Shown in pieces: positions 2,154 to 61,967 of a DNA stretch of 64,000 bases. The stretch comes from Glaucostegus cemiculus. Its lineage: Eukaryota. Numbering within the stretch: the stretch's first letter is position 1; each line of letters starts with the position of its first letter. Below the pieces are notes generated by a model that searched no databases, was not told the origin of the DNA, and saw only the letters and a list, made by a program, of their open reading frames with translations. A program made the position numbers and the translations under genes. Location: assembly GCA_976551045.1 (NCBI GenBank), contig CDPCPM010000010.1, forward strand, positions 37,324,001-37,388,000. The letters are read 5' to 3'.

Positions 2154-4466
2154 CTCGTAACAAAAATTCTGGGACAGCGGATCACGGCCAAACACTTCAA
2201 CATAATTCGGGGGGATCTGAAGGTTTACACTGGCTTTTTGTATTCCATTAAGAGAATGTGTTGAGCTCATGCAACCACATGTGCCGAAAACGCAGCTGCG
2301 GCGGCTAAAAACGTTTCTGCTTCTGTGGACCTGAACAGCTAGGATAACTAAAATCACTAGGAAAACAGAGGAGATTGTTCCCAAAGCTATGACCAAGTAA
2401 AGGCTTATGTCCGAAGGGAATCCGAGTTCTTCACTGAGGCCACTCAGTTCTGAGAGAAGTTCTGTGTCACTGCCCTCAAGTGTTAAGATTATATTAATTG
2501 TGGCCTTAAGTGGTGGGACCCCATTATCCTTTACCACAACTACTAAGCTTTGTTTAGTTGCATCTTCATTCACAACTCGACGGATTGTCCATATCTCTCC
2601 TGTGTCAGGCGCAATGGTGAAAAGACCAGGTTTCGTGACTTGGGCCAGTTGATAAGTAAGTCTTGCATTCTGCCCCGAATCTGAATCGACAGCAGATACC
2701 TTGGTCACCAGATAACCCGGTCCTGCTGATCTGGACAGTGTCTCCGCTGCTGTCGAACCGTGCTCAGGCCTTGGGGATACAATCACCGGGGCGTTATCAT
2801 TCTGATCCAAGATGACCACATTAATTGATACATTGGTGCTCAGCGGCAGCTCTCCGGCGTCCGTTGCTTGGACCTCAATCTGAAAGTTTTTCAATTCTTC
2901 GTAGTCAAAAGAACGCTCAGCGGATATTATACCATTATCTGAATTTATAGAAACATAACCAGATACTGGAGAACCACCGACCTGAGTCTTAAGAATAGAA
3001 TAAGACAGTTTAGAATTTTGATTTACATCTACATCAGAAGCTAGCACTGAGTAAATGGAACTGCCAATGACATTGTTCTCCGTCACATAGGCGGTGTACA
3101 ACTCCTGCGAGAAATGCGGAGGGTTGTCATTTACATCTGAGATCTTTAGCTGAATGGTTTTGTTCGTGGTAAGCGCGGGCAACCCTGCATCGCTGCACGA
3201 AATGGTGATCCCATATTGGGAAACCAATTCCCGATCCAGCAAATCTTTGGTGAGTAATCGATAGTAGTCCTCAAACGTCGAATCTAATCTGAAAGGAAGG
3301 CTGCTTGGAATCTGGCAGTGGGTTTCTCCATTCTCTTCCGTATCTGAGTCGGTCACACTGATTAAGGCTACCACAGTCCCTGGCGGGGCATTTTCGGCGA
3401 CTGAACTGGACAAAGAGGTGAAAGCCACCTGCGGAGCGTTATCGTTCACATCCACCAGTTCCACAAGCACATCGCAATGTACGGGCACAGAAAGGAAACC
3501 CCTGTCCTCAGCTTGTACACTAATCTCCAACTCTGTTCCCGTTTCAAAGTCCAGAGGTCTTTTCACTCTGATCTCGCCGGTGTTCGAGTCTACGCTGAAC
3601 AGTTCCCGCGCTTTGGCAGAAGCGTGGCGACTAAAGGAATACACTATCTCTCCATTGGAACCTTCGTCAACATCGGTAGCGTTGACTTTGATCACCAGCG
3701 TTCCTAAGGGCACATCTTCCAACAGACGGACTCTGTAAAGCGCCTGGCTAAAAGTGGGCACATTATCATTGGCATCCAGGATGCGGATAATAATCTGTGC
3801 GGTGCCCGACCGTTCAGGAATGCCTCCGTCAAGAGCCGTCAGCAGCAACTGCAGAGTGGACTGATGCTCCCTATCAGGGGTTCTTTCTATTACCAGAACC
3901 GGGAGCTTACTATCCCCACTGCGAGACTGTACATCCAGCACGAAATATTGATTTGTAGCCAATCGGTAGGTCTGCAGCGAGTTGGTGCCGACGTCCGGAT
4001 CATACGCAGACTCCAATGGGAAGCGGGATCCAGGGGCTGCCAACTCGGATATTTCCAAACAGAATTCATTCTTTGGGAATTGGGGAGCGTTGTCATTTAT
4101 ATCCAGAATCTCCACCTCGATGTGATACACATTCAGAGGGTCGTCAATGACGGTCTCCAAAGTCAAGGCGCAACTGGGAGCTGAACCACAGATCTGTTCT
4201 CTGTCAATTTTATGGTTCACAAGTAAAGCCCCTTTGTCTAGTTTCACATAGAGATACTGTTTTCTGGGACTGGGCATAATCCGAAAATTCCGAGCCGAGA
4301 GCTGCTCCGCATCTAAACCCAAGTCAGCTGCGATATTCCCAACAAAGGCGCCCAGCTGCAATTCTTCGGGAATCGAATAACGTATCTGTCCAGAAACCAG
4401 ATTCCAGGAAAGCACTAAACACAACAGTGGCCATTTTAACAACCAATATATTTTGTACAATCCCAT
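2154..4466 (-). CDS. Clustered protocadherin variable exon V1 (3' end disrupted; see findings)
   Basis: Signal peptide, six EC repeats (DxNDN, DRE/DYE, AxDxG motifs), TM, IPPNYVEVF tail. First ATG is at 4466 (the ORF track starts at a GTG). ORF stops at 2139-2141. Candidate in-phase donor GAG|GTACGT at 2154|2153; canonical-position donor GAG|GTGAGG at 2007|2006 lies beyond two in-frame TAA. Confidence 0.85.
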
Positions 4467-4705
4467 TTCAAGCACAACGCATTCCCGAATGTTTCAGCAC
4501 GTCACGGCGCTGCTCATTTGTTCACTGGAATAAAGTGGTTATTACGTTTTAAAATCCCAGTTAAGGCACTCCATTATAAGAAAATACCTGCAGTTGTGAA
4601 AAATCTTCGAGATTTTGTATTTGCAGTCAAATCTTCCCAAATCTTGTAAAATTACAATTCTGATACAATCTCAGGCAGCTCGCTATCCGGTCTCATATTG
4701 CATTG

Positions 4706-4881
4706 GATCAGATGTGATGGCGGAGAGGCAGGGAAAAGGGCCGTCAGGATCTCCAGTCACCATTCAGCTTCTGATTGGTGAGTGGAGCGGCATTCGCCTT
4801 CAGCCAATCACAAGAGACCTAACTTCTTAAAGCTGGCACACTCTATCGGGCTTTGAAAAGCAATATTTATAGTTGCGCAAT
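4706..4881 (-). promoter_or_regulatory. Conserved promoter module of V1
   Basis: Read on +: GATGGCGG 4716, ATTGG 4774, CCAAT 4804, TTCTTAAAGC 4824, TATTTATAGTTGCGCAAT 4864. Same block order upstream of all 13 exons. Confidence 0.8.
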
Positions 4882-5594
4882 CTAAATTTGAACCTGCCTC
4901 CATTATTACGCGTTCAGAGATTTAAATATCCCACTCAAATACTTTTCAAGAGGGTTTCCGGAAGGAGGAATTAAAGACCATATATTAATGCTTTACTTGT
5001 AAAATGATTACATGTTTCCCTGAAAGTCAGTTCGCCCAATTGAACTGCTTCAATATTCTTCTATATTACATTCACCTGTCTATTTCAGGTAGTTTTGATA
5101 CTCTCACTGACCTCTGAACCGTGATATTATCAACATAGATGATCAGCAAGAAATCAGTTACAAAACACGATTGTCACGATATTACCAGGATTATGTTTAC
5201 ATTCAGTGCAGCTATATATGCACCATATTCTTCAAACAATACTATGAAAGGTTAGTGTGTTGATGGCTGGGTATTATTTAACATATATCATAGATTCATT
5301 GAGATGCTCTAGGATTATTTTCCCTGTATTTGTCATGTTTTAAATTGGCTGAAACATCCTTCAGCGACGACAATGCCTGAATCATAAATAACGCCTAACA
5401 CCTTCAAAAAGAATCGCCACAGACTACTTAGATAGTGTAAATAAAAGTAAAATGCTTTGTGGTTATGAGTTGTAGATATCACACGGAACTTCAGATCAGC
5501 AAACAGAAAATGTCAGCAATATGTTCTACTGCAAATAGATGCAACCATATCAAACTTGTGAGGTATCTATTTCCCTTCTTAAGGAACACCTCAC

Positions 5595-8069
5595 CTCAGT
5601 ATTTACAGAGTTTCTACAATTTTCAGGAGCCTGGGAGTGCAGATATTTGCATTTCTCATTAGGCCCACCCCCGCCTTTATTTGTCACTGCAGATGAACTA
5701 CACGTATTGGGAAACGGGTAATCTCTCTTGGTAGAACCTATAGTTGAATTGGTTCCATAGCGAAAGCTTTGAGAAAGCGGATCGCCACCGAATACCTCCA
5801 CATAATTCGGAGGTATCTGAATGTTTCTGCTTGCTTTCTGAATCCCATTGAGAGAGTGTCTTGATTTATAACAGCAGCAGATGTCCCCGTAACAACTGTA
5901 AGCACCAAACCCACTCCTGCTTTTATGGACCTTCACAGCGAGGATGATTAAGATCAGCAGAAGGATGGATGAAATTGCCCCCAAAGATATCACCAGGTAA
6001 AAACTCAACGCCGACTTGAAAGCCACCTCATCGTCCAGATCGGTGACACCAGAAAGCAGTTGGGCATCCCCATCGACCACCGACAAGCTGATGGTCATGG
6101 AAGCTGAAAGCGGCGGCGTTCCGTTGTCTTTTACCACAATCGTTAACTTTTGCTTTGCCGCATCCTTCGCCACCATGCGACGGATGGTCCACACTTCGCC
6201 CGTGTCCGGTGAAATGGTGAAAAGACCTGGGTCAGTCGCCTGGACAATCTGGTAAGAGAGGCGAGCATTCTGGCCCGAGTCAGCATCCATGGCAGACACT
6301 TTGGTAACCAGGTAACCTGGCTCCGCAGAGCGGGACATCGTTTCCGGGACGGTTGACCCACGTTCTGGTAGTGGGTGTAGAATCACTGGGGCATTGTCGT
6401 TCTGGTCAAGGATAACAACGTCCACCGAAACGTTGCTGGTGAGTGGTGGGATTCCGCTGTCCTGTGCTTGAACCTGGAACTGGAAGCTTTTGAGTTCCTC
6501 GTAGTCGAAACTTCTTTGAGGAAAAACGATTCCATTCTCCGAATTAATGTAGACATAGTTGGCTACAGACTCACTCTGGACCTGACTTCCCGGAATGGAA
6601 AATGATAGTTTACCATTCAGGTTCAAATCAGGATCTGTGGCTGTCACTGAGAGGACGGAGGCTCCGATGACGTTGTTCTCCATCACATAGGCTGTGTAAG
6701 AGGATTGGCTAAAACGAGGCGAGTTGTCATTGACATCTGAGATCTCGATCTGCATGGTTTTCTTGGAAGTCAGAGGAGTCGAGCCTGAGTCACGACAGAG
6801 TAAAGTGACGTCATACTTGTGGATGTTCTCCCGGTCCAACTGGTCTACGGTTAACAATTTGTAATAGTTTATTAAGGGCGAATTCAGTTTAAATGGAAGG
6901 TTATTTGGGATTTGACAATCAACCTCACCGTTTTTCCCAGAGTCTTTGTCTGCAGTACTAACCAGCGCTATCACAGTCCCCGGGGGAGAGTCTTCGCCAA
7001 TTGGACTGAACAAAGAGGTCACCGTCACCTCTGGAGCGTTATCATTCTCGTCAATAACATCCACATGAACACGGCAGTAGGCAGGTACTGGAGCGGAGCC
7101 TTTGTCCATTGCCTGAACATTGATCTCAAAGGCACTATTTACCTCATAGTCCAAATCCCCCTTCACTTTGATTTCCCCTGTTTTGGAATGCAGATCAAAC
7201 AGTTCACGTACTGTCGCCGAGGTGTGGCTTGTAAAGGAATACTCTATATCTCCATTTGAACCATCATCCAAGTCAGTCGCATTAAGCTTTATCACAAGTG
7301 TTCCTTTGGGCACATTTTCATTCAGGCTGACCCTATACACCGACTGAGAGAACACGGGAGAATTGTCGTTGGCATCCTGCACTGCGATTAGTATTTCAGC
7401 AGTGCTGGACCTCGGAGGGATCCCCCCATCCTCGGCAATTAGTTGTAACTTGTGAGTTGCTTCTTTCTCTCTATCCAGTGCCCTCTCCAGCGTTAGCACT
7501 GGCAGCTTCTCATTCCCACTGCGGGTCTCAATGTCGAGCGCGAAGTACTGATTTCCAACTAGGTGATAGTTTTGTAGGGAGTTTGTTCCCACGTCCGAAT
7601 CGTAAGCGCACTCAAGGGGGAAACGTGCACCCGGTGCCGCCACTTCAAAGATTTCTAAACGAAACTGAATCTTTGGAAAATTGGGAGCGTTGTCGTTTAT
7701 ATCCAAAACCTCCACTTCAATCCGATAGACATTCAAAGGATTTTCGATAACAGCTTCCATTGATAAAAGGCAAGTAAGACTCGACCCACAAAGCTGTTCT
7801 CTGTCAATATTTTCTTTCACAAACAAAATCCCATTGTCTAAATTTACGTCCAAATATTTTTTCCCGAGACCCGGCACGACGCGAAAATTTCGAGCTGAGA
7901 GTTCTTTCACATCCAAGCCCAAATCGTCTGCGATATTACCAACAAAGGCGCCAAGTTGCAATTCTTCGGGAATGGAATAACGAATTTGTCCCGAAACTAG
8001 ACCCCAGAAGGAGAATAGACAGTATAACAGATGCCATTTTCTTAAGCAATATATTCTACAATATCCCAT
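5595..8069 (-). CDS. Clustered protocadherin variable exon V2
   Basis: 839-aa ORF with signal peptide, 6 EC, TM and cytoplasmic segment; phase-0 donor GAG|GTGAGG at 5595|5594; read-through stop at 5550. Confidence 0.95.
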
Positions 8070-8306
8070 TTCCAGCGAAAATCATTTCAAATGCTTCAGC
8101 GCAGCCCTGATCCGTTCGCGAAACCGTCTTAATAAACGTCTTCCTATATAATTTTACAGAGCTTTCATTTATATAAAAATACCTGCACAATTTGAAAATC
8201 CAGACATTAACTAAGGCAGATGTTCCTATTTCTAAAATCATCCAAAGGTGCATGCTCAGATCGTAATATAGCATTACGCGGCTTGCTGTCCATTTTTGCA
8301 CTGTAG

Positions 8307-8469
8307 CTGATCTTACGTGATGGTGGATAGGGAGAGATCTCCAGCCAACTTCTGGCTTCTGATTGGCGAACGCCTACATTTCCGCATTCAACCAATCACT
8401 GCCCTAGCACTGCTTAAAGCTAGACCGGCCTTGAAAACTGCGTAAAAGCGGTATTTATAGTTGTACACT
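8307..8469 (-). promoter_or_regulatory. Conserved promoter module of V2
   Basis: ATTGG 8362, CCAAT 8392, TGCTTAAAGC 8411; the GGGCAGTC block is missing. Confidence 0.8.
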
Positions 8470-8689
8470 TAAAAACATTTACCCTCCTTTTCTTTCGACA
8501 TATTAAACGTATTCCTTCTGCAAAACATTCTAAGAGGAAAAATCAAAACTTGCTATAAATACGGCGACATATCTTGTTGCGTTTATTGTTATTTATCTTT
8601 AGATGGCAGAGCAACGTCTACTCCTTCAATAACGTCCATGACGCATCCAACATAAAACGCATTCCTGCTTCGTTTTGAAAATAAACCAA

Positions 8690-8875
8690 ACTGCAGAAGC
8701 TGAAAATCTGAAATAAAAACAGAAAATGTTGGAAACAGCAGTAACTCAGGAAGCATCTGTGCAAAGAGAAACAGATTTAACGCTTAAGGTCGAAGACCCT
8801 TGGTCAGATCTGATTTGTTTCCACAGATGCTGCCTGACCCGCTGACTGCTTCCAGCAGTTTATGTTTGCATTTCT
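8690..8875. mobile_element. Penelope-like element terminal relic (partly palindromic)
   Basis: CAGATGCTGCCTGACC..CTGCTTCCAGCA on + and its inverted counterpart (CAGGAAGCATCTGTG); same family as 22545-22792. Confidence 0.5.
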
Positions 8876-9212
8876 GGAGATTTTCTTTGTTAGAAAGCCG
8901 AACAGCAACCTATCATTATACTGTCATAAAATATTGGTATGTTGGCTGTACTCGTGGATTTCATTACAATCTGCTATATCCATACAACTTACAATAATTT
9001 TTAAGTGGCACAATTACAGCAACCCCAAATATACTGGGTGCCACATAAATGAAAAAACAAAATGATGAATTCATTGAGCCTGGTCGATAGATGATGATCA
9101 GGAAAAGTCCAAAATAGATGGGAATCACAGCTTTTCATTTCCACCGGTTGAGATCTTGACGTGTATCCAAATCAAACGTGCAGTTCCCCTCACCTTTGGA
9201 AACGCTTCTCAC

Positions 9213-11657
9213 CTCACTATAGTCGGTGTTTCTGCAGCTTGCAGAGTTTGATACTGGTGGAATCTCTTCATTCCCAACAGGGTAGACACTGCCGTTATTC
9301 TTGCCTGCAGGTGAGCCGCACGTGTTGCGGAACATGAAGTCTCCCTTGATAGTGTGTGTAGTGGAGCACGTATCATAGCGGAAACTCTGAGAAAGTGGGT
9401 CGCCCCCGAACACTTCAACATAGTTTGGGGGTATCTGAAGACTCCGACTCGTCTTTTGACTCCTTGCCACAAAACAGCAAGAGTTACAATCATCAAAACC
9501 CCGTCTGTTTCTGTGAACTTTAATGGCGAGCACAACCAAAATTGCGAGAAAGGCCAAAGAAATTAATCCCAAGGCTATAACCAAATAAAACCTCGTGTCC
9601 GGAGCCAAAACTGCTTCTTCAGATAAACTGTCCACCTCAGATAACAATTCTGATTTACTCTGTTCCAAGGAGATAATGATGGTTATTGTAGCTGAAAGTG
9701 TTGGCTCCCCGTTGTCTTTTACAACAACGACCAAACGTTGCTTCCTTAGATCTGTGTCCAGGACGCCACGGATTGTCCATATATCCCCCGAGTCTGAGGA
9801 AATTGTAAAAAGTCCAGAGTCTGTAGCTTTGAAAATCTGATAAGTAAGGCGAGCATTCTGGCCAGAGTCTGCGTCGGTTGCGGATACTTTGGCGACAAGG
9901 TAACCGGGCTCAGCGAACCTCGACACAGTCTCCGTCACCGTAGAGCCATATTCTGGCAGTGGATGAATGATGACTGGGGCATTGTCATTTTGATCGAGGA
10001 TAATGACATCTACTGAAACGTTGCTGCTCAGTGATACAGACCCAGAGTCTTGTGCTCGGACACAGATCTGAAAGTTTACAAGTTGTTCGTAGTCAAATGA
10101 CTTCTGAGCGTAGATGACACCAGTTTCCGCATTAATATTCACGTAAGCGGATACTGGCAAGACCTGATCCCATGTTTCCAAGATAGAGTAAGACAACTGA
10201 GAGTTCTGGTCTACATCCGGATCAATGGCAGTCACTGAGAAGATAGAAGACCCAATAACATTGTTCTCCGTTACGTAGGCTGTGTATGAAGATTGCGTAA
10301 AACGCGGTGCGTTATCATTTACATCGGAAATCTCCACCTGGATGGATTTCTTGGATGTGATAGGGGGAGTTCCGCTATCACTGCATACGATTGTAACATC
10401 GTAATTTGAGATACTTTCGCGATCCAGCCGTTGCTCCGTTAGTAATCTGTAATAGTTCGTCAAAGAGGAATCCAGTTTGAAAGCAGAACTACTTAAGACT
10501 TGGCAATGTACCTGCCCGTTATCTCCTGAGTCTTGGTCATTCACGTTAAACAGGGCGACAACTGTCCCGGGCAAGGCGTCCTCACTGACAGGACTGAATA
10601 TAGAAGTCAATGTCACCTCCGGTGCGTTGTCGTTGATGTCAATAACGTCCACCAACACTTCACAATGTACAGGAGTTGCATAAGGCCCCTTGTCCGTCGC
10701 TTGTACGTTGACCTCAAAAACATCGTTTTCCTCGTAGTCCAAATTCCCTTTGACCCTGATTTCGCCGCTTCTGGAGTCCACACTGAACATCTCACGGACT
10801 CTGTTGGAGGCATGGCTACTGAAGGAGTACACAATCTCCCCATTGCTGCCATCATCTAAATCAGTAGCATTTAGTTTGATTACCAGTGTACCTTTGGGTG
10901 TATTTTCCAGCAGCCTCGTCCTATATTCCGATTGCTGGAACACCGGCGCGTTGTCGTTCGCGTCCAGCACTGTGACAATTATTTGCGCCGTCCCAGATTT
11001 TTCAGGGATGCCTCCGTCCTTGGCAATCAGGACTAACTTGTGGATACTTTGCTTTTCCTTGTCTAGTAGTCTTTGCAACACTAACACTGGCAACTTGCCA
11101 TCTCCACGGCGTGACTGCACGTCTATCGTGAAATACTCGTTGTCGTTCAGCTGGTATGTCTGTACAGAGTTGACTCCGGCATCTGGGTCATGCGCAGACT
11201 CGAGGGCAAAGCGCGCACCTTGTGCCACAACTTCTGAGATTTCCAAGCGGAATTGGGTTTGGGGAAAGCTGGGGGCGTTGTCATTTACATCCAGAATTTC
11301 CACTTGAAAGTGATACACGGTTAGCGGATCTTCGATCACGGCCTCTAAGAACAATGTACACGCGGGGTTCGACCCGCAGAGCTGTTCCCTGTCAATTTTC
11401 CCCTTTACATAAAGAACTCCATTGTCCAAATTTACATCAAGATACTGCTTCCTGGGTTTAGACACAATCCGAAAACTGCGGGCAGCCAGCTCCTTCACGT
11501 CTAAATCCAAATCGTCTGCGATATTCCCAACAAAAGCACCCAGTTGCAGCTCTTCAGGAATTGAATAGCGAATCTGTCCCGAAACCAGACCCCAGGATGA
11601 TAACACAAAGTAAAAAAGTGACCATTTTAACAGCCAATATGTTTTAGAATCTCCCAT
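9213..11657 (-). CDS. Clustered protocadherin variable exon V3
   Basis: 6 EC plus TM; first in-frame ATG at 11657 (track start 11678 is TTG); donor GAG|GTGAGA at 9213|9212. Confidence 0.95.
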
Positions 11658-11901
11658 CTCCTGCACAAAGCATTGCAATTACTTCAGCGCGACACGCCAT
11701 TCACCGATTTTCTTGAATAAGATTCTACAAATGCCAGTTTTAAAGATAAAAGAGGCAATGTTGCATAAAGTACCTGTATTTTTCAAAGGTTATTGATATT
11801 TTTCTCGAACCCTTTTCATTTCAATTAAAATATCCAGTGCTTTCGAATACAAAACCCGTTCCAGCGTTATGCGGCTCGCTATGCGGAGTTTGACACTGTA
11901 T

Positions 11902-12074
11902 CTGATCATACGTAATGGAGGCTGGGAGGGAAGGGGGCAGTCAAGATCTCCAGACACATTTCAGCTTCTCATTGGTGAACTGACGTTCAGCCAATCATCT
12001 GGCAGAATATTTCTTAAAGCTGGAATGTCTCTGTTAACCTCCGTGTCACAATTACATTTTTTTTAGTGTACAAT
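11902..12074 (-). promoter_or_regulatory. Conserved promoter module of V3
   Basis: ATTGG 11971, CCAAT 11991, TTCTTAAAGC 12011. Confidence 0.8.
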
Positions 12075-12826
12075 ATAAATTACTTGCACTGTTTTCTGTA
12101 TTGGTTTGGCAGTTTCCTTTTTTGTGCTAACTTGTGGTGGGTTTTCTAAGCGCTACTACTTTTCAACCCATTAAAAAGAGCCTATTTTATGTAATTTTGC
12201 AGGTATCTAATCCTTGATATGCATGGTTTCATGCCATTTCAAAACAGATAACCAACACTTAATTTTGTTATTTCTAATGCTTAATCCCCAATTCAGTCCA
12301 TGACATTATACAAGCAGTTGACTGTTGATCTGAGCTATTTGAGTAAGACATGCCATTTCACAAAGTTTCCGTTAAAAAAAAACAATCCAGTACCAAACCT
12401 CATGACATCAGCATCATGAGGAGGGCAATGACACTCATTTCTTTTAATCTCCAATGCTCAGTGAACAACCAGTGCAAGCATATTTGGTGTTTTCTTTTTA
12501 CCATGAAAATATAGCTGACAATATATCCAGCACTATTTTTCTGCAATTGTGCTTTATCTGTACATTTTTAATGGTAATATTTTCCGACTCCCACATACAA
12601 CGAAATGTTAAAACAATATAAACGCACCAAAAGGCAAACGATTGATTAGCAGAGGAGCTGATCCAGAAATAGCGACTGGAAATGCAGATCACAGAGTGAT
12701 CTGATATGACCGATTCACAGGTATTGCCTAAATCCGATCTTCGTGATCTAAATGTTTTCAGTAATCATTTGTACTTCCAATTGAAACCCATGAGGTGTTC
12801 TTTTCGCCATCGAATAACAACCTCAC

Positions 12827-15271
12827 CTCATTATTTACAGTGTTCCTGTACTGCGCAGAATTGGGGGTTTGTAAGGTATCGCCATTTCCCAAAAAGCCAC
12901 TAGGAGCATAATTCTTACGCGTAGATCCACTGTTGGACAACCTGACATCCTTCTTTACAGAATGTGAACTTGAGCATGAATCATAGCGGAAGCTCTGAGA
13001 AAGTGGATCACCCCCAAACACCTCAACGTAGTTTGGTGGTATCTGAAGGCTTCTTTTGCCTCTGTGGAATCCATGTATTGAGTTTCTTGCTGTAAAGCAA
13101 CTACATGAGCCAAGAGGAGAGGTTCTATGGACCTTAATAGCGAGGATAATCAAAATCATGAGGAAAACAGACGAAGTGACCCCTAACGTTATTACGAGGT
13201 AAAAGCTGGTCTCAGAAGCAAACACGGGATCCTCAGACAAACTATTCACTTCTGACAGCATTTGTCTATCATTTCCAACTAAAGACAAGATGATTGTCAC
13301 TGTGGCTGTAAGTGGCGGTGATCCATCGTCCTTTACACAGATGACCAACCTTTGCTTAGCGGCGTCATTCTTCCTAATACTGCGTATTGTCCAGATTTCT
13401 CCCGTGTCCGGTGAAATGGTAAAGAGACCGACGTCAGTGGCTTGGAGAATCTGGTAGGCAAGACGAGCATTCTGGCCAGTGTCACTGTCCGTAGCAGAAA
13501 CCTTGGCAACCAGGTAACCTGGTTCTGCGAGCCGGGAAATGGTCTCTAACACAGTAGAACCGAATTCAGGTAACGGATGCACTATCACGGGAGCATTGTC
13601 GTTCTGATCCAAGATAATTACATCCACTGAAGCATTTCCAGAAAGTGGTGGGGAACCGGAGTCCCGTGCCTGAACCTGGATCTGAATTTTTTTGAGATGC
13701 TCGTAGTCGAAACTTCTCTGCGAAACTATGACACCACTGCGCGAGTTAATCGAGACATAAGTGGATATTGACATGCCCTGAATCTGAGTCTCCAAAATAA
13801 AATAGGACAGATGGGCGTTCCTATTTAAATCGGCATCTAAAGCAGTCACAGAGAATATGGATGCACCAATCGGGTTATTCTCCATCACATATGCTGTATA
13901 TATAGGCTGTGTGAACTGAGGTGGGTGATCATTTATATCCGAGACCTCCACCAGGATCGTTTTGTTGGCTGTCAGTGGAGGAATCCCGGCGTCGCTGCAC
14001 ACGATGGTTACATTATATGTTGAGACATGTTCACGATCCAGGGTCTCCCGGGTAACCAGTCTATAATAGTTATTTAAGGATGAATCTAGTTTAAACGGAA
14101 ACTGGCTAGGGATTTCACAATCTACGTGCCCGTTGTCAGCCGAATCCTTGTCTGTTGAACTGATCAGAGCCACTACAGACCCAGGGAGCGAATCTTCACC
14201 GACAGGGCTGAATAAAGATGTCAGTGTTATCACAGGCGCGTTGTCATTCACATCAACAACGTTAACCACCACGTGACAGTACACAGGAGTTGCGTAAGGA
14301 CCCTTATCTTTTGCTTGAACGTTAATCTCAAAAACACTATTTTCTTCGTAGTCCAGATTGTTTTTAACTCTGATTTCACCAGTTTTAGAATCCAGCCCAA
14401 ACATTTCACGAACTCTATTCGAAGTATGACTACTAAACGTATACACGATTTGTCCATTGAGTCCAGCATCCAAATCTTTGGCATCTAGTTTAATCACTAA
14501 CGTTCCTTTGGGTGCATTCTCCCGCAAACTGACCCTGTAGACCGGCTGGGGGAAAACAGGCGCGTTGTCATTGGCATCCTCTACAGCGATCATTATTTCA
14601 GCAGTGCCAGATCTCTCAGGAATCCCTCCGTCTTTAGCTATTAACACCAACCTGTGTGTACTTTCCTTTTCTCTGTCCAGCGGTCTTTCCAAGACTAATA
14701 CCGGTAACTTTCCGTCGCCACCCCGCGTCTCAACATCGAGGGAAAAATAGAGATTGTCTACTAGCTGATAGCGCTGTACAGAGTTGGTTCCAACGTCCGG
14801 GTCCTGTGCGCACTCCAGAGCGAAGCGCGTTCCAGGAGCAGCCACCTCTGATATTTCCAAATTGAACCGGCTCTGTGGAAAGCTCGGGGCATTGTCATTT
14901 ACATCCAAAATGTCCACTTGAAAATGATACACATTTAGAGGATTTTCAATCACCGCTTCCAAAGATAACGTGCAAGCGAGGCTCAGCCCACACAACTGTT
15001 CTCTGTCCATTTTTTCCCTCACAATCAAAACCCCATTGTCTAAATTTACGTCGATATACTGCTTGCTGGGCCCAGGCACAATTTGAAAACCGCGAGCTGA
15101 GAGTTCTTTTAATTCCAAATTCAAGTCCTCTGCGATGTTCCCAACAAAGGCGCCGACATTCAATTCTTCAGGAATCGAATAACGTATCTGTCCAGAAATT
15201 AGTTGCCAGGAAGGGATAATACAATATAAAAGTTGCCATTTCATTAGCCAATATAATTTATAAAATTCCAT
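12827..15271 (-). CDS. Clustered protocadherin variable exon V4
   Basis: 6 EC plus TM; ATG at 15271; donor GAG|GTGAGG at 12827|12826. Confidence 0.95.
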
Positions 15272-15512
15272 TTCCAGCGCAAAGCATTTCAAATGATTGA
15301 GAACAACGCGGCGCCGTTGAATAATTCCTGCTAAAAAGAGTAAATTATGATTCCATTTTGACTAATACAGCTGAATTGCATAAAAAACAAACGTTGTGCT
15401 TAAAAAATCTACGTAACGATTTCTGACAAACCTTATTTCTTCCAATTTCGCCAAAAGATGAACGTAAAGAACCGAATGTTAGAACAAGCAGCTCTACCCT
15501 GATACACGGTAT

Positions 15513-15692
15513 CTAGTCGTATATAATGGCGGAAGGGGAGGGTAGGGCAGCAGAGATCTCCAGTCACATTACAGCCGCTCATTGGTGAAAAAGGCTGACT
15601 TAAGTTCAGCCAATCACCACACGAAGCATTTCTTAAAGCTGGACTGCATTTATAAAACTTGGCTCAATTAACTATATTTAAGGTTGTACAAT
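15513..15692 (-). promoter_or_regulatory. Conserved promoter module of V4
   Basis: ATTGG 15581, CCAAT 15610, TTCTTAAAGC 15630. Confidence 0.8.
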
Positions 15693-50690: not shown

Positions 50691-50899
50691 TTCCAGGAGA
50701 AATCATTCCAATGGTTTCAACCTGAGACAAAGCCTTTTAACAGCGATTGATTTAAATGGGACAAATACGATGCAGAAAATATCTTTACCTATTTGCAAAT
50801 TTCTCAATCGTTTTCATTTGATTGCTCCTGTTGTCTCCAGTTCGAAACAAATCGTGCACAAATGCTCCGCAGCTGCTGGCTGCCCAGTTTTCACGGCGT

Positions 50900-51077
50900 C
50901 TGATGTTACGCAATGGCGGCTGGGAACTAAAAGGGGCTGTGCAGATCACCAGGCACATCTCAGCTTCTGATTGGTGGACAATGTAACAGTCATATCTGAC
51001 CAATTAGAGTGAAGCTCATTTCTTAAAGCATGAAGTGCTACTTTGGCACAGAGTTGTTCTATTTATTACTGTACAGT
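50900..51077 (-). promoter_or_regulatory. Conserved promoter module of V11
   Basis: ATTGG 50970, CCAAT 51000, TTCTTAAAGC 51020. Confidence 0.8.
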
Positions 51078-53000
51078 TGGAATTTTTTTCCACATTTTTG
51101 ACCATCTAGTTTTTTTTGCAGAAATATAGCTCCAGAATCATAATTTCAGGAATTACGATGCAGTGAATATCTTAAAGATGAAATATGAAATAAAAGCCTT
51201 CGGACACGTGATCACAGTGAACAACAGAACTTCTCTTGCTGAGTGACTAATTAAATGCATTCTCCAAGTATATTTGTTCCATCGTAGTTTTACAATCGTG
51301 GTCTCCTGTTAATTAATACTCATGGATCACTGTCTCCCGCTCGCGTGAAGAGAACCAAGTCAAACTAAATACTACTGCTATACCAAGAGGAATAACCTCT
51401 TTGTGCGTCATTTTCAAAAGAGTAAGTCAATTGTAATTCCATTCCAAAGCAATTATATTTATATCCCATAGTGTCAACAATAAATAGCCGAATGACTGAG
51501 ATTTTATCCAAGGGGTTTCAAAATTTACGTGTTAGCATGCAAATAATCTCCATCGTTTTTTCCCCTAACGCAGAAGCTGATGCGTTTGCCTTTGCGTAAA
51601 ATGTAAACGAGAATGCCGTCATGTCTACCATTACATCTCTTTCCTGTCGTGATATTAGACGAGATCTATGGTCTCGTCCAGATCTCCAGAACTGTTTGGA
51701 GAATTAATTTGTGGAATGCTACTCCCCTGACTTGAACAACAATATTGCCCCAGGTACTTTAACATTCTTTGGTTTCATTACTGTTATACGTTTAACTTTG
51801 ACTATGAATCATATATCACCATTACTTCGCTGACAATGGAACTAAATCTTCGAACTTCTTATACAATAATTTTACAAGAGATAAAGACCTTGTCGATGCC
51901 ACCCATATCTTAGACAAAATGGAACATATGTTTGATCGTTGAAGACTGCTTATCCCAAAAGCAAAGCAGCTCTGCAGTAATTCCTAGGGACTCTGCGTGA
52001 AACCTTCCAGCTCGGACACTTCCCAAAATATCTTAACAATATTATGTGTGGAAAAGTTTGCTGTTGACCACACGAGGCAGTCCGTAAGCACTTGAAACAT
52101 GCTCGACGCAGTGTCGATGTTTTGAATTTTAACTGAGGTAACGTTCATAAATAACACAATTGCTAGACATTGGCCATCCCCAGCAACATGGTATGTCAGC
52201 CACCTATCCTCGAATTAACTCACATTGCCATCATTGAATTCACATCCTATTGACATGACTGTCACCATTTATCAGAAAGTACTGAATGAGCTACATGAGA
52301 GCCGTGGTTAAAACAGGGCACCAGAATTTGGACTTCATGGGGTTCCTCTTGTCTTATGTCATTTGAAAGCCACAAACCAGAAGTTTGCGCGAATATTTTC
52401 CATATACCTGAACACGTAACTGGACAACACGCAGAATACTCGAGTCCATCCAGAGCATAGTTTTCAGCCTGTTTAGCAGTACATAATATGCCTTACACAT
52501 ATTAATTCATGCTACTGTAGAATACACTGCAATATGCCAGTAATATTTCTCCAAATTCTCTCCAAGATCTCGCCAAGGAAGAAATGTAAGTGCAGAAGGA
52601 AATAACAGCAGGAGAAAAATCCCACAACCAACTAAGATATACTTCACTATTTATCAGAAACTTTTGAATTAGCTGCGTACATGTTTTGGTTGTGACAGAA
52701 TACCGCATGATTTTGTTTTGTTCCCGTGGGCTTTGCAGCTTTTCATAGACTTTCCAACACTAAGGATGTAATCAGTATCTTGTTGGAATAGTCTCCATCA
52801 GATTGTATTGCTAACTCCATCACACTTAGAGAGTTCCACAGTGTTAAAAAAGATGCTTCCAGTTTAATGAGCAGTGCATAAAGTACTTTGGATGCTTCAG
52901 ACATAAAATTAGAACGCAAAAACTATAGAAATACTCATCATGCCAAGCAGCACTGATGGAGGGAATCCCAAACATAACTACCCAGACTGATCACCTTACA

Positions 53001-53286
53001 AGATCACAAGATCACAAGACAATGGAGCAGAAGCAGGCCAGTCGGCCCATCGAGTCTGCTCCAAAGGGAAGGGAAGGGAAGGTGGGGGGGGGGAAAAAAA
53101 AAAACAAAAAAAAAACCTACTATTCTAAGTCCAAATCCCTGCCTTATCTCCATATCCCTTGATACCTTGACCATTTATTTTTTTATTTATTTATTTATTT
53201 TTTAAAAATATTTTTCCCGCGTCAGTCCACCGTCCTCCACCCTTCTGCCAGGAATCCCGTCACGCCCCGCGTCAGTCCTCGATCAG
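53001..53286 (-). mobile_element. Young short retroelement with CR1-like tail, inserted in one unit only
   Basis: Absent from paralogous units (empty site CACCTTACATCGA); TTACA duplicated at 52996-53000 and 53287-53291; 8-bp tandem tail (CACAAGAT)n; CpG-rich head. Confidence 0.7.
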
Positions 53287-53696
53287 TTACATCGACTGAT
53301 TTAAGGTCATCGGCCAGAAATGTGGACTCTTGGTTCTCACTCCACAAATATTGCTGTATTTTCAGTACGTAGTGATTTTTTTTTAGTTCCGCTTTCCAGC
53401 AGCTACATCTTTTTCTCCGTCCGGGTTGTAAGTACAGAGTGACCTAGTACATCTGGAGTGGGCTGCTGCTTTCACACGAAGTACTCACAACAAGCTTGTG
53501 GAACAGTATCCTCAAGGTCTCCCGTAAGATAGTTAAAAAGATAAATGGTAAAAAAAGGGCCAGGTTAAACAGTCACTCAGTACTTCGATAAACTTCATTT
53601 AGGATGGAAAGTTGTACGAGAATCATACGGGTTTGCAGGACCTGGTGTGGCAACACGTTAGACTTACATATATTCGCAAAAAGGCACGAATAATTA

Positions 53697-53894
53697 TATT
53701 GCCTTTATCTCTCGTAAAGTGATTGCAAAAGAAGCTCGAAGATTTAGTTCCATTGTCAGTGAAGGAATGGTGATATATTATTCATAGTCAAAGTTAAACG
53801 TATAACAGTAATGAAACCAAAGTATGTTAAACTACCTGGGAGAATATTGTTGTTCAAGTCAGTAGAGTAGCATTCCACAAAGTAATTCTCCAAC
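53697..53894 (-). repeat. Inverted ~195-bp copy of cluster spacer sequence
   Basis: Reverse complement of ~57497-57690 and ~51697-51888; absent at the homologous position of other units. Confidence 0.85.
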
Positions 53895-54037
53895 GAATAA
53901 AAAGACTATATGGCAATTAGGCATGTGGATCAACATCAGTATGCACAAGGACATTTTGATCTAGATAATAATTTCGTCCAGTTAAAGCAATGGCCCGAGA
54001 ATCAAAAACGCTTTCTTTTTTTTGCGAAGTAGCTCAC

Positions 54038-56485
54038 CTCGTTATTTACAATGGAGTTATAGATGTCAGAATTCAGCATTCCGGCATTCTCCTTCCCAAT
54101 GGGTTTCTTCTGGGCATAGGAGATATTTACAGATGGCCCACAGGATCGAGGATTAGTGAGGTCTCTCTTCATGGACTGCAAAGTTGAACACGAATCGTAA
54201 CGGAAACTCTGAGAAAGTGGATCACCTCCGAATACCTCAACATAGTTCGGTGGTATCTGAAGGCTTCTGCTGGCCTTTTGAATTCCATTTAGAGAATTTC
54301 TCGTTTCGTAACAACAACAGACATTCAGAGAACTGTATGGGCATCCCACACCATTTCTGTCTTTATGAACTTTAATAGCCAGGAAAATTAAAATCACGAG
54401 GAATATGATGGATGTCGCCCCTAATGTGATGACTAAGTAAAGATTCAGACCGGGTGTAAAGTCACGATCTTCAGATAAACTGGTGGCACTGGAAATCGTT
54501 TCACCTCCTGTCACTGATAATACTATGGTTACCGTGGCTGAAAGTGAGGGCGTTCCGTTGTCCTTTACAACAATCACCAGCCTTTGATTTGAAGCATCCA
54601 TGCTCCCAATACCACGGATAGTCCAAACTTCTCCCGTTTCTGCTGAAATAGTGAACAGATCGCGATGGGTAGCCTGAAAAATGTGGTAAGACAGACGGGC
54701 ATTCTGACCAGCGTCGGCGTCAGTAGCTGATATCTTGACAACGAGGTATCCCGGTTCAGCAAACCTGGATATTGTCTCCATTGCTATTGAGCCGTATTGG
54801 GGTAAAGGATGCACGATCACTGGAGCGTTATCGTTCTGATCAAGGATAACGATATCTATTGTAACGTTACTGGTGAGGGGCGGGTCTCCAGAATCCTGCA
54901 CCTGAACTTGGATCTGGAAGTTTTTCCATCGTTCATAGTCAAATGATCTCTGAGCATATATGACACCAGTCTGTGAGTTGATGGAGAAATATGGGGCTAC
55001 GGATGAATTCAACATAGTAAAGTACAGTCGGGCATTCTGTCCTGTGTCTGGATCGAAGGCTGTCAGAGAGAATATGGAATCCCCAATGACGTTGTTTTCC
55101 ATAACTCTTGCCGTGTATACAGACTGCTTAAACCTTGGTGCGTTATCATTTACATCTGAAACCTCCACACGGATATTTTTCTTGGATGTTAGGGGAGGGT
55201 TCCCTGCATCTGTGCAAGTTACAGTAATGTCATACCTGGAGGTAGTTTCACGATCCAGCGTATCTTGTATAAGCAGTTTCCAATTATTCTTTACAGATGA
55301 ATCTAACTTAAATGGTAGTTTGTTCGGAATTTGACATTTTACGTGCCCATTTTGCCCAGAATCCTTATCTTCTGCACTGAGAAGGGCGACAATAGTTCCA
55401 TTTGGAGCATTTTCTGCTACGGCGTTTGACAAGGATGTCAACGATAGATCAGGAGCGTTGTCATTCACATCGATAACATCCACCAACACATCACAGTGCT
55501 GAGGCACTGCGTAAGGGCCATTGTCTACTGCTTGGATATTCATCACAAAAGTTTTGGTTAGTTCGTAGTCTAAGTGCCCTTTAAGTCTGATTTCACCAGT
55601 TCTGGAATTCACACCAACTAATTCACGTATTTCAGCTGAATTATGTCTGCTAAGCGCATACGTTATGTCTCCGTTTAGACCATCGTCCAAATCAGTGGCG
55701 TTTAATGTAATAATCAGAGTTCCTATAGGAGATGATTCCAACAGATTAACCTTATAGATCGACTGCGAGAAAACAGGAGCGTTGTCGTTCGCATCCTTCA
55801 CCGTGATTATTACCTGGACCTTGCCCGATCTCACAGGGACTCCGCCGTCTTCGGCAAGCAGCGTTAACTCGTGGGTTGATATCATTTCTCTGTCCAAGGC
55901 TCTCTGCAGAACCAACAGCGGTAACTTTCCTATCCTATCGCGTTCTTGTACATCAAGAATGAAATATTCATTCGGAAGGAGCTGGTATGAATGTAAACTG
56001 TTTGTTCCAATATCCGGATCGTGTGCGGCTTCGAGTGGGAATCGCTCTCCCGGTGCCATAATCTCGGAGATTTCCAGGCGGATTTGGTTTTGGGGAAAAC
56101 TGGGAGCGTTGTCATTTACATCGAGAATCTCCACTTCCACCTGGTGCAGACTGAGGGGATTTTCAAGCACAACGTTGAAGGATAAAACGCACTCAGTGCT
56201 CGTCCCGCAAAGTTGTTCCCTGTCGATTTTTTCTTTCACAAATAAAATCCCATTCTCCAAATTTACGTCAACATAGCGCTTCCTCGGACTGGGCGCCACC
56301 CGCAAACTGCGAGCCGAGAGCTGCTTTAAATCTAACCCCAAATCAATGGCGATATTCCCAACAAAGGCGCCCAGTTGCAATTCCTCAGGAACGGAATAAC
56401 GAATCTGGCCATAAACGAGACTCCAGCGGGAGAACAAACAGCAAATCAGTTGGCATTTCACCAACCAGTATATGTTGTCTCTCAT
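54038..56485 (-). CDS. Clustered protocadherin variable exon V12
   Basis: 6 EC plus TM; donor GAG|GTGAGC at 54038|54037. Confidence 0.95.
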
Positions 56486-56695
56486 TTCCAGGAGAAATCA
56501 TTCCAATGGTTTCAACCCGAGACAAAGCCGTTTAACAGCGATTTGATTTAAATGGGACAAATGCGGTGCAGAAAATGTCTGTACCTTTTTGGAAATTGCT
56601 CTGTTGTTTCAGTCTGACTTCGCATTTTGTCTCCAGTTCTAAAGAAATCGTGCACTCATCGTCCGGAGCTGCTGGCTGCCCAGTTTTCACAGCGT

Positions 56696-56874
56696 CTTAT
56701 CTTACGTTATGGCGGCTGGATACTGAAGGGGGCTGTGCAGATCACCAGTCACATCTCAGCTTCTGATTGGTGGACAATGTAACAGTCATATCTGACCAAT
56801 TAGAAATCAGCTCATTTCTTAAAGCAATAACTGCTTCATTTGTCACTGACTTGTTCTATTTATTATTGCACAAT
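56696..56874 (-). promoter_or_regulatory. Conserved promoter module of V12
   Basis: ATTGG 56766, CCAAT 56796, TTCTTAAAGC 56816. Confidence 0.8.
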
Positions 56875-59306
56875 TGAAATTTCTTTGAGCATTTTAGCTG
56901 ATTCAGATTTTTGCGGAAATTTGTTTCCAGAACCATAATTTCAGGAACTACGTTGCAGTGAATATCTTAAAGATCAAATACGAACTAAAAGCCTCCAGGA
57001 ACGTGATAAAAATGAACAACCTAACTTGTCTTACTGAGAAACTAATTAGATGCATGCTCCATGTACATTTGTTCCTTTGTGGTTTAACAATTGTGCTCAC
57101 CGTTAATTAATACTCGAGGAACACTGTCGTCCCCTCCTTTGAATAGAACCAAATCAAAGAATACACTACTGCTGTTCCAAAAGGAATATCCTCTTTGTGC
57201 GTCATTTTCAAACTAATAAGTCAATACTAATTTCATTTCTAAAACATTGTTATTTATATTCCCTGGTATCCACAATAAATAGAGCAGTGACTTCGATTTT
57301 ATCCATAGCTGATCACAATTAAGGGCAAGCATGGGAATGCTCTCCATAGTCGTTTTCTAAAGTAAAACCTAATGTATAAAAGCCTTTGTATAAAATGTAA
57401 ACCGGAGTAACATCATGCTTACCACTAAATCCTTTCCCTGACCTGAGATAAGACGAGGTCTATGGTCTTTTCTAATTTCCATATGCCCAGAACTGTTTGG
57501 AGAATGAACTTGTGGAATGCTACTCCACTGGCATGAACAATAATATTCACCCAGGTACTGTAACATTCTCTGGTTTCATTACTGCTATATGTTTAACTTT
57601 GACTATGAATCATATATCATCATTCCTTCACTGACCATGGAACTAAATCGTCGAGCTTCTTTTGCAATCACTTTACGGGAGATAATGGCCTTGCCTCTGA
57701 CACCCATATCTAAGACACAAATGAGCATAAGTTTTATAGATGACGTCAGCTGATCCCAAAAGTATCTCCACACTAATTCCTGGGGACTCTGTGTTGACCC
57801 TTCCATCTCCGACACTTCCCAAAATATCTGCAAAGTATTATGTGTGGGAAGGTTTGCTGTTGACCACATGATGTTCATTTATATTCAAGATTCCTTAGAT
57901 AAGGAGGCAGTCCGTACTAACTCGAAACAAGCTCTACAGAGTGTTGATACTTTGAGTTTTAACTGAGGTTACATTTATATATAACAGTTGCTCAGTATTG
58001 GCCATCGCCAGTCACAGGTATGACAACCACGTCTCCGGGAATTAACTCACTTTGCCATCCACATCCTATTAATATGGGTGTCACCATTTAACAGAAACTA
58101 TTGAACGAGCAACGTAAGTGCTTTGGTTACGACAGGTCACCAGAATTTGGAATTCCGGGGGTTCCTCTTTTCCTCTACCATTTGAAGCCACAGATCAGAA
58201 ATTTAGTCGAATATTTTCCAAATACCTGAATATGTAATTGGAGCAACACACATAATACCCGACTCCATGCAGGTAAAAGCTTTCAGCCTGACTAGCTGTA
58301 CATAAAATGCCTTACACTTGTTCATTCATGCGACTGCAGAGTACACTGAAATTTCCCAGTGATATTTCTCCAAAGTCTCTCCCAGATCCGCAAGTACATA
58401 ACGAAATAACAGCTGGACAATACCCATGACCAGGTAAGATATGCTTCACTACACAAATTATCAGAAACATCTGAATTAGTTACATGCTTACTTTGGCTGT
58501 GCCAGGGCACCACACGATTTTTTTTGTTGTGGACTCTGAGAACTTTTCATACACTTTCCAACACTAAGGAGCTAATCAGGACCTTTTTGGAATATTCTCC
58601 ATGGGACTGGACAGGTAACTCCAACAACAATTAGACAGTTCCATAGTGTCCAGAACGAAGCTCTGCACACACTACTTTAGATACTTCAGACAAAAAAACA
58701 AGAACATATAAAGTATAGAAATATTCATCATGCTAAGCAGCACTGATGGAGAGAACTCCAAATATAACTCTCCAGACTGATCACCTTACATCACCTTCTG
58801 ATTTCAGGTCATCGGCCAGAAACCTGGACTCTTGGTTCTCGCTCCACAGATGTTGCTGTATTTTCAGCATGTAGTGATTTCTTGTTAGTTCCGCTTTCCA
58901 GCATCTACATGCTTTTCTCCTTTTGGGTTTTAAGTACAAAGTGATCTAATACATCTGGAATGATATGCTGCTTTCAAATGAAGTACTTGCAACAAGAATG
59001 TGAACTAGCACACTCGAGGTCAATAGCCCAGTTTTTACAGTCACTGAATGCTTCGTAAACTTTAGTTGGGAAAGAAATTGTACAGAATCATAGGGGCATC
59101 CAGAACCTGCTGTAGGAACGCATTGGAGTTACATATTTTTATACAAAGACCTGAACAGTTAGAATAAAAAGAATACATGACAATGAAAACTGTGGATCAA
59201 AATCAGTGTCCACAAATACATTTTGGCCTAGATATTAAATTCAACTCAGAAAACTCAATGGATCGAGTTTCCAAAAGAATTTCTTTTCTTTTGCGAAGTA
59301 GCTCAC

Positions 59307-61754
59307 CTCATTATTTGCATTGGAGATGTACATGTCAGAATTCTGCATTCCCGCATTCCCTTTCCCAATCGGTATCTTCTGGGCATAGGAAATACCTGTA
59401 GATGGTCCGCATGTTTGAGGCGTCGTGAAGTCTCTCTTCACGGATGGCAATTTTGAACACGACTCGTAACGGAAACTCTGAGAAAGTGGATCACCTCCGA
59501 ATACCTCAACATAGTTCGGTGGTATCTGAAGGCTTCTGCTGGCCTTTTGAATTCCATTTAGAGAATTCCTCGTTTCGTAACAGCAGCAGACATTCAGAGA
59601 ACTGTATTGGCATTCCACGCCATTTCTGTTCCTGTGAACTTTAATAGCCAGGAAGATTAAAATCACGAGGAATATGATGGATGTCGTCGCTAATGCAATG
59701 ACGAGGTAAAGATTCAGATCAGGTCTTAAGTCACGATCTTCAGATAAACTGGTGGCACTGGAAATCGTTTCACCTCCTGTCACTGATAATATTATGGTTA
59801 CTGTGGCTGAAAGTGAGGGCGCTCCGTTGTCCTTAACAACAATCACCAGCCTTTGATTTGAAGCATCCTTGCTCCCAATACCACGGATAGTCCAAACTTC
59901 CCCCGTGTCTGCTGAAATGGTGAACAGATCGCGATGGGTAGCCTGAAAAATGTGGTAAGACAGACGGGCATTCTGACCAGCGTCGGCGTCAGTAGCCGAT
60001 ACCTTGACAACGAGATATCCCGGTTCAGCAAACCTGGATATTGTCTCCATTGCTGTTGAGCCGTATTGGGGTGAAGGATGCACGATCACTGGGGCATTAT
60101 CGTTCTGATCAAGAATAATAACATCTATTGTAACGTTACTGGTGAGGGGCGGGTCTCCAGAATCCTGCACCCGAACTTGGATCTGGAAGTTTTTCAATTG
60201 TTCGTAGTCAAACGATCTCTGTGCAAATATGACACCAGTCTGTGAGTTGATGGAGACGTATGGGGCTACAGATGAATTCAGCATAGTAAAATTCAGCCGG
60301 GCATTCTGTCCTGTGTCTGGATCGAAGGCTGTCAGGGAGAATATGGAATCCCCGATAACGTTGTTTTCCATCACCTTTGCCGTGTATACGGGCTGCGTAA
60401 ATCTTGGTGCGTTATCATTTACATCTGAAACTTCCACACGGATCGTTTTCTTGGATGTGAGCGGAGGGTGCCCTGCATCTGTACAGGTTACAGTGATGTC
60501 ATATCTGGAGGTAGTTTCACGATCCAGCGTTTGTTGTAGAAGTAGTTTCCAATTGTTCTTTAGAGATGAAACCAACTTAAATGGCAGTGTATTCGGAATT
60601 TGACATTGTACTTGCCCATTTTGCCCGGAATCCTTATCTTCTGCACTGAGCAGGGCGACGATAGTTCCAATTGGAGCATTTTCTTTCACGGCATTTGACA
60701 AGGATGTCAACGATAGATCAGGAGCGTGGTCATTCACATCTATAACATCGACTAACACATCACAGTGCTGAGACATTGCGGGATGCCCATTATCGACTGC
60801 TTGTATATTTATCATAAATGTTTTGATTTGTTCATAGTCTAAATGCCCCTTCAGTCTTATTTCACCAGTTCTGGAATTCACGGCAACTAATTCACGAACC
60901 TCAACTGAATTTTGTCTGCTGAGGGCGTACGTTATCTCTCCATTCCGGCCGTCGTCCAAATCAGTGGCGTTTAATTTAAATATCAGAGTTCCTATGGGAG
61001 ATGATTCCAACAGATAATTCTTATAAACGGACTGAGAGAAAACAGGAGCGTTGTCGTTCGCATCCTTCACCGTGATTGTTACCTGCACCTTGCCCGATCT
61101 CACAGGGACTCCGCCGTCTTCGGCAAGCAGCGTTAACGGATGAGTCGATATCGTTTCTCTATCCAAGGCCCTCTGTAGCACCAGCACCGGGAACATCCCT
61201 ATCCTATCGCGTACTTGTACATCAAGAATGAAATGTTCATTAGGAAGCAGCTGGTATGTCTGTATAGAGTTTGTTCCAATGTCCGGATCGTGTGCGGCCT
61301 CGAGGGGGAATCGCGCTCCCGGTGCCATAATCTCGGCGATTTCAAGGCGGATCTGGCTTTGGGGAAAACTGGGAGCGTTGTCATTTACATCGAGAATCTC
61401 CACTTCCACCTGGTGCAGACTGAGGGGATTTTCAAGCACAACGTTGAAGGATATAACGCAGTCGGTGCTCGGCCCACAAAGTTGTTCCCTGTCGATTTTT
61501 TCATTCACAAATAAAATCCCATTCTCTAAATTTACGTCAACATAGCGCTTCCTCGGACTGGGCGCCACCCGCAAACTGCGAGCCGACAGCTGCTTTAAAT
61601 CTAACTCCAAATCAATGGAGATATTCCCAACAAAGGCGCCCAGTTGCAATTCCTCGGGAACGGAATAACGAATCTGGCCACAAACAAAATCCCAAGAGGC
61701 GAACAAGTAGCAAAGCAGTTGATATTTCACCAGCTGGTATATGGTATCTCTCAT
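59307..61754 (-). CDS. Clustered protocadherin variable exon V13
   Basis: 6 EC plus TM; donor GAG|GTGAGC at 59307|59306. Confidence 0.95.
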
Positions 61755-61967
61755 TTCCAGGAGAAATCATTCCAATGGTTTCAACCCGAGACAAAGCCTT
61801 TTAACAGCGATTTGATTTTAATAGTAGAAATGCGATGCAGAAAATATCTGTACCTCTGTTGCGAATTGTTCGAATGCATTCATTTAAATGTTCTCATGTT
61901 GTCTCCAATTCGAAAGAAATCGTGCAGAAATCCTCCGGAGCTGCTTGCTGCCCAGTTTTCACTGCGT

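Follow-up and report, generated by a model that had tools for sequence, protein, structure and literature searches.

A conserved out-of-frame ATG sixteen nucleotides ahead of the start codon in one clade of clustered protocadherin exons of Glaucostegus cemiculus

The question raised by this locus is why a run of tandem protocadherin (Pcdh) exons should carry, at one and the same distance ahead of the start codon, an ATG in the wrong reading frame. The DNA analyzed comprises positions 37324001-37388000 of contig CDPCPM010000010.1 (C10) of Glaucostegus cemiculus, a stretch of 64,000 nucleotides (nt) that we call the window, and its minus strand holds 13 tandem clustered-protocadherin variable exons, V1-V13. 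Each main ATG starts a cadherin open reading frame (ORF) of 775-856 amino acids (aa) (13/13), the V2 translation contains the Pfam domains Cadherin_2 and Cadherin, and the array has the organization of clustered protocadherins, with tandem single-exon ectodomain genes spliced onto a common constant exon. The upstream ATG (uATG) at -16 relative to the main ATG is real and restricted to one clade of the cluster, and comparison of the paralogs indicates that it is likely under purifying selection.

Distribution and conservation of the -16 ATG

In every window exon the uATG lies 16 nt before the main ATG, out of frame and on the minus strand, with G at -3 in all 13, variable bases at -2 and +4, and no G at +4. 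The upstream ORF (uORF) of V1 encodes 4 aa and ends 1 nt ahead of the main ATG, while those of V2-V13 run past it and are 9-52 aa long (Table 1). These counts agree with an initial annotation of the window, which had reported the spacing in all 13 exons, the constant G at -3 with variable -2 and +4, the out-of-frame overlap in V2-V13, and the hexamer GGAATG in 10/13 exons as against the ATG in 13/13. The uATG is no isolated island, since it lies in a conserved, nearly gap-free block that makes up the final ~27 nt of the leader and has further columns identical in 13/13 exons at -27, -26, -19, -17, -6, and -3. Because V8-V13 are recent duplicates, as are L001-L011 outside the window, the 13 exons are not independent and amount to ~8 lineages.

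A genome search with the first cadherin repeat returned at least 78 matches, 74 of them on C10 at 37.33-38.72 Mb; all 65 matches outside the window were retrieved, and start codons were assigned in 73 of the 74 cluster exons, the other (L029) being too broken. The -16 ATG is present in 26/27 paralogs of one clade (V1-V13 and L001-L014) and in 0/46 of the other variable exons, so it is clade-specific, and the cluster-wide scope envisaged in the initial annotation is not supported. The uORF stop lies beyond the main ATG in 12/13 window exons and 25/27 clade members, with V1 and L012 as the exceptions. Neither the uORF peptide nor its length (4, 8, 9, 38, 39, or 52 aa) is conserved, and the peptide is therefore not the kept feature. 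An in-frame upstream stop was also tried as the selected feature and rejected, as the overlapping TGA at -15 occurs in 19/27 paralogs only.

Overlapping out-of-frame ATGs at other distances are found elsewhere in the cluster. One at -10 is present in 12/17 paralogs of a second clade (L039-L055; 38.15-38.31 Mb), namely in L042-L045 and L048-L055; L039-L041, L046, and L047 have lost it or never had it. Its context is weak, and the conserved A/T-rich block around it looks like the -16 block displaced by 6 nt. Another at -25 occurs in L019-L021 (C10 37.79-37.85 Mb), whose signal peptides are unusually short (18 aa), and it is possible that this ATG is the ancestral start moved out of frame. A further one lies at -13 in L035, and 31/73 variable exons have no such ATG within 30 nt of the start. 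The -16, -25, -13, and -10 ATGs all share the same frame, which for four origins and two possible frames is not significant. The -16 ATG itself was considered as a fossil ancestral start and rejected, as it would give a signal peptide of 31-32 aa compared with mostly 23-29 aa in other clades. We also observed that GTG replaces ATG as the start codon in L043, L058, and L034, with the L058 ORF otherwise intact.

The case for selection comes from counts of Fitch changes over the 27 paralogs, made on coding-region or upstream-region trees. The uATG triplet has undergone 0/1/0 changes, compared with means per column of 5.9-6.0 in the mid-leader (a value inflated by poor alignment), 4.1 at third positions of the signal peptide, and 2.8-3.0 in the -30..-1 block. 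Given the rate at third positions of the signal peptide, the Poisson probability of one change or fewer in three columns is 6e-5. Around the uATG there are 0 changes at -3, 3-4 at -2, 2 at -1, and 6 at +4, and around the main ATG (0/0/0) the corresponding numbers are 0, 2-3, 2, and 2-3, such that the profile of the uATG appears to mirror that of a true start codon, with -3 and the ATG fixed and -2 and +4 loose. When 10 deep paralogs are compared pairwise, identity stands at 0.88 in -19..-14, falls to 0.53 at -13..-7, and is 0.44 in the mid-leader, and third-position identity, at 0.42-0.56 along the exon and 0.56 in the signal peptide, is saturated; an identity of 0.88 amid divergent flanks and saturated third positions disfavors both conversion and drift. 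The other ATGs that align across the leaders are retained in only 16, 13, and 7 of the 27 paralogs. There are no indels between the two ATGs, compared with a total of 51 distinct patterns of gaps over -215..-31, which is weak evidence because only ~3.6 patterns would be expected at the leader rate in the 13-nt spacer. The V2 orthologues of four other close species likewise keep the uATG unaltered, an orthologue comparison having been proposed in the initial annotation; this test covers V2 only and is weak, at 4-6% divergence with 6-7 differences per 113-141 nt in three DNA runs. Taken together, the paralog comparison suggests that the -16 ATG is likely kept by selection, far beyond what drift would do.

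Transcript leader and predicted translational effect

RNA evidence was drawn from a relative of ~95% identity, in the form of contigs of two runs that were taken as RNA by guess and whose ends lie at splice donors with extra letters. The spliced 3' ends of these contigs coincide with the donors, and their 5' ends, which are blind to start-site heterogeneity, reach -215/-232 in V2, -236/-238 in V3, -206 in V4, and -249/-280 in V5, with no intron-sized gap between the coding sequence and the contig 5' ends in V2-V5. For V2 there are in addition seven stranded raw reads of the relative, all sense, with a depth of 6 over the uATG and 4 at -111, and with neither a joint nor a step. A leader intron that would excise the uATG was considered and rejected, there being no joint in the relative's reads and contigs. 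The uATG therefore is within an unspliced mRNA leader in this close relative, and the placement of the uATG in the mRNA, which the initial annotation had presupposed, holds there on the V2-V5 contigs and the V2 reads. The V1 contig signal is blurred by V2 read-through: one RNA-like contig of the relative, corresponding to window 2152-5620, joins the 3' end of V2, across the intergenic gap, to the whole of V1, and represents either read-through or a retained intron. The same relative lacks the additional G that V1 has at 4484.

Farther upstream, a promoter block at about -345..-230 is strongly conserved in all 27 paralogs (e.g., window 8300-8420). It comprises an A/T-rich box, a pair of inverted CCAAT boxes at about -300 to -340 that are separated by 20-30 nt, a GATC core, and a tract of pyrimidines that stops just ahead of the inferred start site; the contig 5' ends fall just downstream of the block. 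Apart from the uATG, V1, V4, and V6 have at -45..-26 (window 4492-4512, 15297-15317, and 25383-25403, minus strand) a stretch that resembles by eye two RE1/NRSE half-sites with no spacer, as judged against a consensus taken partly from PMC2926608.

The reading that we favor is that the conserved -16 ATG serves as a constitutive overlapping-uORF attenuator of the main ORF. It starts from an ATG whose presence, frame, conservation, and position in the relative's transcript are matters of observation, and it supposes initiation at -16 and a lowered protein output, a proposition to which we give an even chance. Scanning ribosomes would enter at the cap ~230 nt upstream and meet the -16 uATG, which would capture most of them and yield a short unconserved peptide of 4-52 aa in place of protocadherin, and protocadherin would come only from leakage past the uATG or from recapture at the nearby main ATG. 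The net effect would be less protein per mRNA, and the decoy would have been fixed in the clade ancestor and spread by tandem duplication. Such a damper would be neither a cluster-wide nor a vertebrate-wide device, nor would it be an equaliser.

The size of the effect can be predicted from a mammalian table of start-context efficiencies obtained by fluorescence-activated cell sorting and sequencing (FACS-seq; PMC4299517 supplement), from which 18 contexts were taken, 8 of them uATG contexts. The predicted efficiencies are 79-98 for the -16 uATG contexts, 78-108 for the main contexts, and 29 for the -10 context, which rates the -16 uATG at roughly the strength of the main ATG. With the leaky-scanning constant of k = 0.86 (PMC4299517), the modelled pass-through at the -16 uATG would be 16-32%, corresponding to 3-6-fold damping, compared with 1.3-fold for the -10 ATG, and main-ORF output would be 0.11-0.28 with the uATG and 0.67-0.93 without it. 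In yeast reporters, out-of-frame uATGs at -25 to -7 are reported to repress, more weakly when closer to the main start (PMC9743702); since AUGs within ~17 nt compete, 3-6-fold damping should be taken as an upper bound.

Were the attenuator reading true, translation would, in one lineage or more, be a further level at which Pcdh dose per isoform is tuned, and this would matter because control of clustered Pcdh genes has so far been studied almost wholly as promoter choice. The array would then offer a natural allelic series for close-AUG competition, with 26 genes that have the uATG, one without it, varied contexts, and a weak-context version at -10. More tentatively, one might picture in cartilaginous fishes a post-transcriptional layer on the Pcdh identity code, in which a decoy AUG at -16, with parallels at -10 and -25 in the same frame in two other clades, could tune by close-AUG competition the dose of each stochastically chosen isoform at the neuron surface.

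Competing explanations of the conserved block

Several observations weigh against attenuation. The clade member L012 (C10:37494300-37497800) has AGG in place of the ATG, with gene and promoter both intact; as the sole intact clade member without the -16 ATG, it also constitutes a natural control. Every leader already holds 2-7 ATGs, for a total of 106 over the 27 genes, and one more need therefore not set the output. The modelled spread of output is 2.5-fold with the uATG and 1.4-fold without it; as the spread widens, the dosage equaliser suggested in the initial annotation finds no support. The efficiencies used are mammalian, the scanning model is validated only for starts at least 20 nt apart, and the RNA is the relative's. 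Human ribosome profiling (Ribo-seq), among the 48 PCDHA/B/G rows listed in the supplement of PMC10908861, gives no ORF at -16, the rows containing scattered uORFs and two TTG-initiated overlapping uORFs (ouORFs); short ORFs over the main start are hard to call, and this negative is therefore weak evidence. Within the conserved block the triplet is less exceptional: in a post hoc test that shuffled the 27 columns, a three-column run with one change or fewer arises in 28% of trials, or in 3.5% if an invariant -3 base is also required. In the second clade the A/T-rich block is conserved and the A of the -10 ATG has changed three times, so that conservation of a Pcdh leader end can have causes other than an ATG. 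Finally, in the 23 intact genes A-17, G-19, A-27, T-11, and C-6 are without change and the T of the ATG has changed once; with flanks as invariant as the ATG, a longer bound motif is a live rival.

In that rival explanation, which we regard as possible but doubtful, the conserved unit is a protein-binding DNA or RNA motif, approximately T-T-G-N-A-A-T-G within a longer block, with the ATG incidental and the damping tolerated. G-N-A-A-T-G is found in 24/27 paralogs, A-17 is altered only in the pseudogenes L013 and L014, and the block of the -10 clade likewise ends in GAATG, with an ATG that flickers. TEAD sites (the M-CAT consensus) need the second G of GGAATG, which is the very base that varies, with 3-4 changes; the strict hexamer is kept in 20/27 paralogs compared with 26/27 for the ATG, in line with the view of the initial annotation that TEAD fits less well than the ATG. 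A palindrome does not hold up, with 2-5 changes per column in its left half versus 0-2 in its right half, and a position that is fixed relative to the start but varies relative to the promoter would be unexpected for a transcription-factor site. With regard to an RNA motif, single-sequence folds of -50..+40 differ between paralogs and give no common fold, and a conserved RNA hairpin was rejected on the same basis. If a bound motif nevertheless proved to be the conserved unit, it would represent a leader element not described before, for which these genes pay with a large part of their translation.

Absence of function, with the founder's ATG persisting through recent duplication or being spread by gene conversion from exon 1, appears very improbable. 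It would be in keeping with the recent origin of V8-V13 and L001-L011, with the loss of the ATG in one intact gene, and with its retention in the pseudogenes L001, L008, L013, and L014, which have stops and frameshifts. This explanation is, however, largely refuted by the deep-paralog identity profile, and the Poisson value argues against it as well, as do the mild depletion of out-of-frame ATGs elsewhere in the leaders (74 versus 96 expected) and the little conversion reported in elephant shark Pcdh genes (PMC2764143).

Very improbable too is an ATF4-like stress switch, in which a strong short uORF farther upstream would let ribosomes reinitiate and the -16 overlapping uORF would block them except when ternary complex is scarce. 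At about -139..-153, 10/27 paralogs (V8, V9, V13, L001, L002, L004-L006, L009, and L011; the aligned ATG is in 13) do share a 5-codon uORF whose -3 base is A, but most deep paralogs (V1, V2, and V4-V7) lack it, and on the ATF4 model a 16-nt gap would probably be too tight for a ribosome delayed in reinitiation to bypass the first ATG and use the next. A second aligned leader ATG was seen at about -128 in 16/27 paralogs.

Locus context and relation to known systems

The features of the window are collected in Table 1. Constant exon 1 lies ~4.7 kb past the window's start, which makes V1 the last variable exon; used as a query, constant exon 1 matched only itself. Chondrichthyan Pcdh subclusters have been named delta, epsilon, mu, and nu (PMC2764143). 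The clade with the -16 ATG is probably a nu-like subcluster, judging from its adjacency to the last constant region and from the order of the subclusters. A high-copy fragment resembling a short interspersed nuclear element is present at window 8688-8865, between V3 and the V2 promoter, with thousands of reads on both strands.

Table 1. Coordinates of exons, uORFs, and leader elements in the window
Feature	Position	Strand	Basis
Variable exons V1-V13 (V1 2139-4466 ... V13 59241-61754)	2139..61754	minus	ORFs; Pfam domains of V2
V1 uORF, 4 codons; main ATG 4466	4468..4482	minus	sequence
V2 overlapping uORF, 9 codons; main ATG 8069	8056..8085	minus	sequence; sense RNA reads of relative across it
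V3 overlapping uORF, 9 codons; main ATG 11657	11644..11673	minus	sequence
V4 overlapping uORF, 9 codons; main ATG 15271	15258..15287	minus	sequence
V5 overlapping uORF, 9 codons; main ATG 19606	19593..19622	minus	sequence
V6 overlapping uORF, 39 codons; main ATG 25357	25254..25373	minus	sequence
V7 overlapping uORF, 38 codons; main ATG 29607	29507..29623	minus	sequence
V8 overlapping uORF, 52 codons; main ATG 34974	34832..34990	minus	sequence
V9 overlapping uORF, 52 codons; main ATG 40296	40154..40312	minus	sequence
V10 overlapping uORF, 38 codons; main ATG 45364	45264..45380	minus	sequence
V11 overlapping uORF, 52 codons; main ATG 50690	50548..50706	minus	sequence
V12 overlapping uORF, 38 codons; main ATG 56485	56385..56501	minus	sequence
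V13 overlapping uORF, 52 codons; main ATG 61754	61612..61770	minus	sequence
V2 example of the -27..-1 conserved block (uATG and main Kozak context), found before every V exon	8070..8096	minus	alignment
V2 5' leader, inferred, ~215-232 nt, no intron	8070..8301	minus	relative's RNA contigs ending at 8284 and 8301
V2 inverted CCAAT box pair, conserved promoter block	8362..8396	minus	alignment

The -16 ATG of this clade, as a putative decoy, is apparently a new instance of a known mechanism, undescribed in the literature searched: the search found no description of uORF control of Pcdh genes, its reach not extending to the paper on the cluster of the elephant shark (Yu 2008, PNAS), whose figures or supplements may show the block. 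The closest known system is repression by ouORFs through leaky scanning, of which 4,679 translated examples have been called in human (PMC10908861). The features in common are an out-of-frame leader AUG, a frame that runs past the main AUG, a moderate Kozak context, and an unconserved peptide, and the differences are that here 26 tandem paralogs whose synonymous sites are saturated all keep to a single offset and that translation of the uORF is a prediction. In close-AUG competition under Brownian-ratchet scanning, an upstream AUG within ~17 nt competes with the main one and a smaller gap gives weaker repression (PMC9743702); that system consists of synthetic yeast reporters, whereas the pair described here is natural and conserved, with a 16-nt gap at the edge of the competing range. 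The ATF4 two-uORF switch shares with about a third of the paralogs a short upstream uORF followed by an overlapping inhibitory uORF, but in this clade the first uORF is not conserved throughout and the inhibitory AUG is just 16 nt from the main AUG. The cluster itself resembles other chondrichthyan Pcdh clusters in its ~2.4-kb tandem variable exons, each with its own conserved promoter, and its common constant exon (PMC2764143). Known control of Pcdh clusters is transcriptional and involves promoter choice, the CGCT element, and NRSE/REST (PMC2926608), whereas the -16 ATG is a candidate for control at the level of translation.

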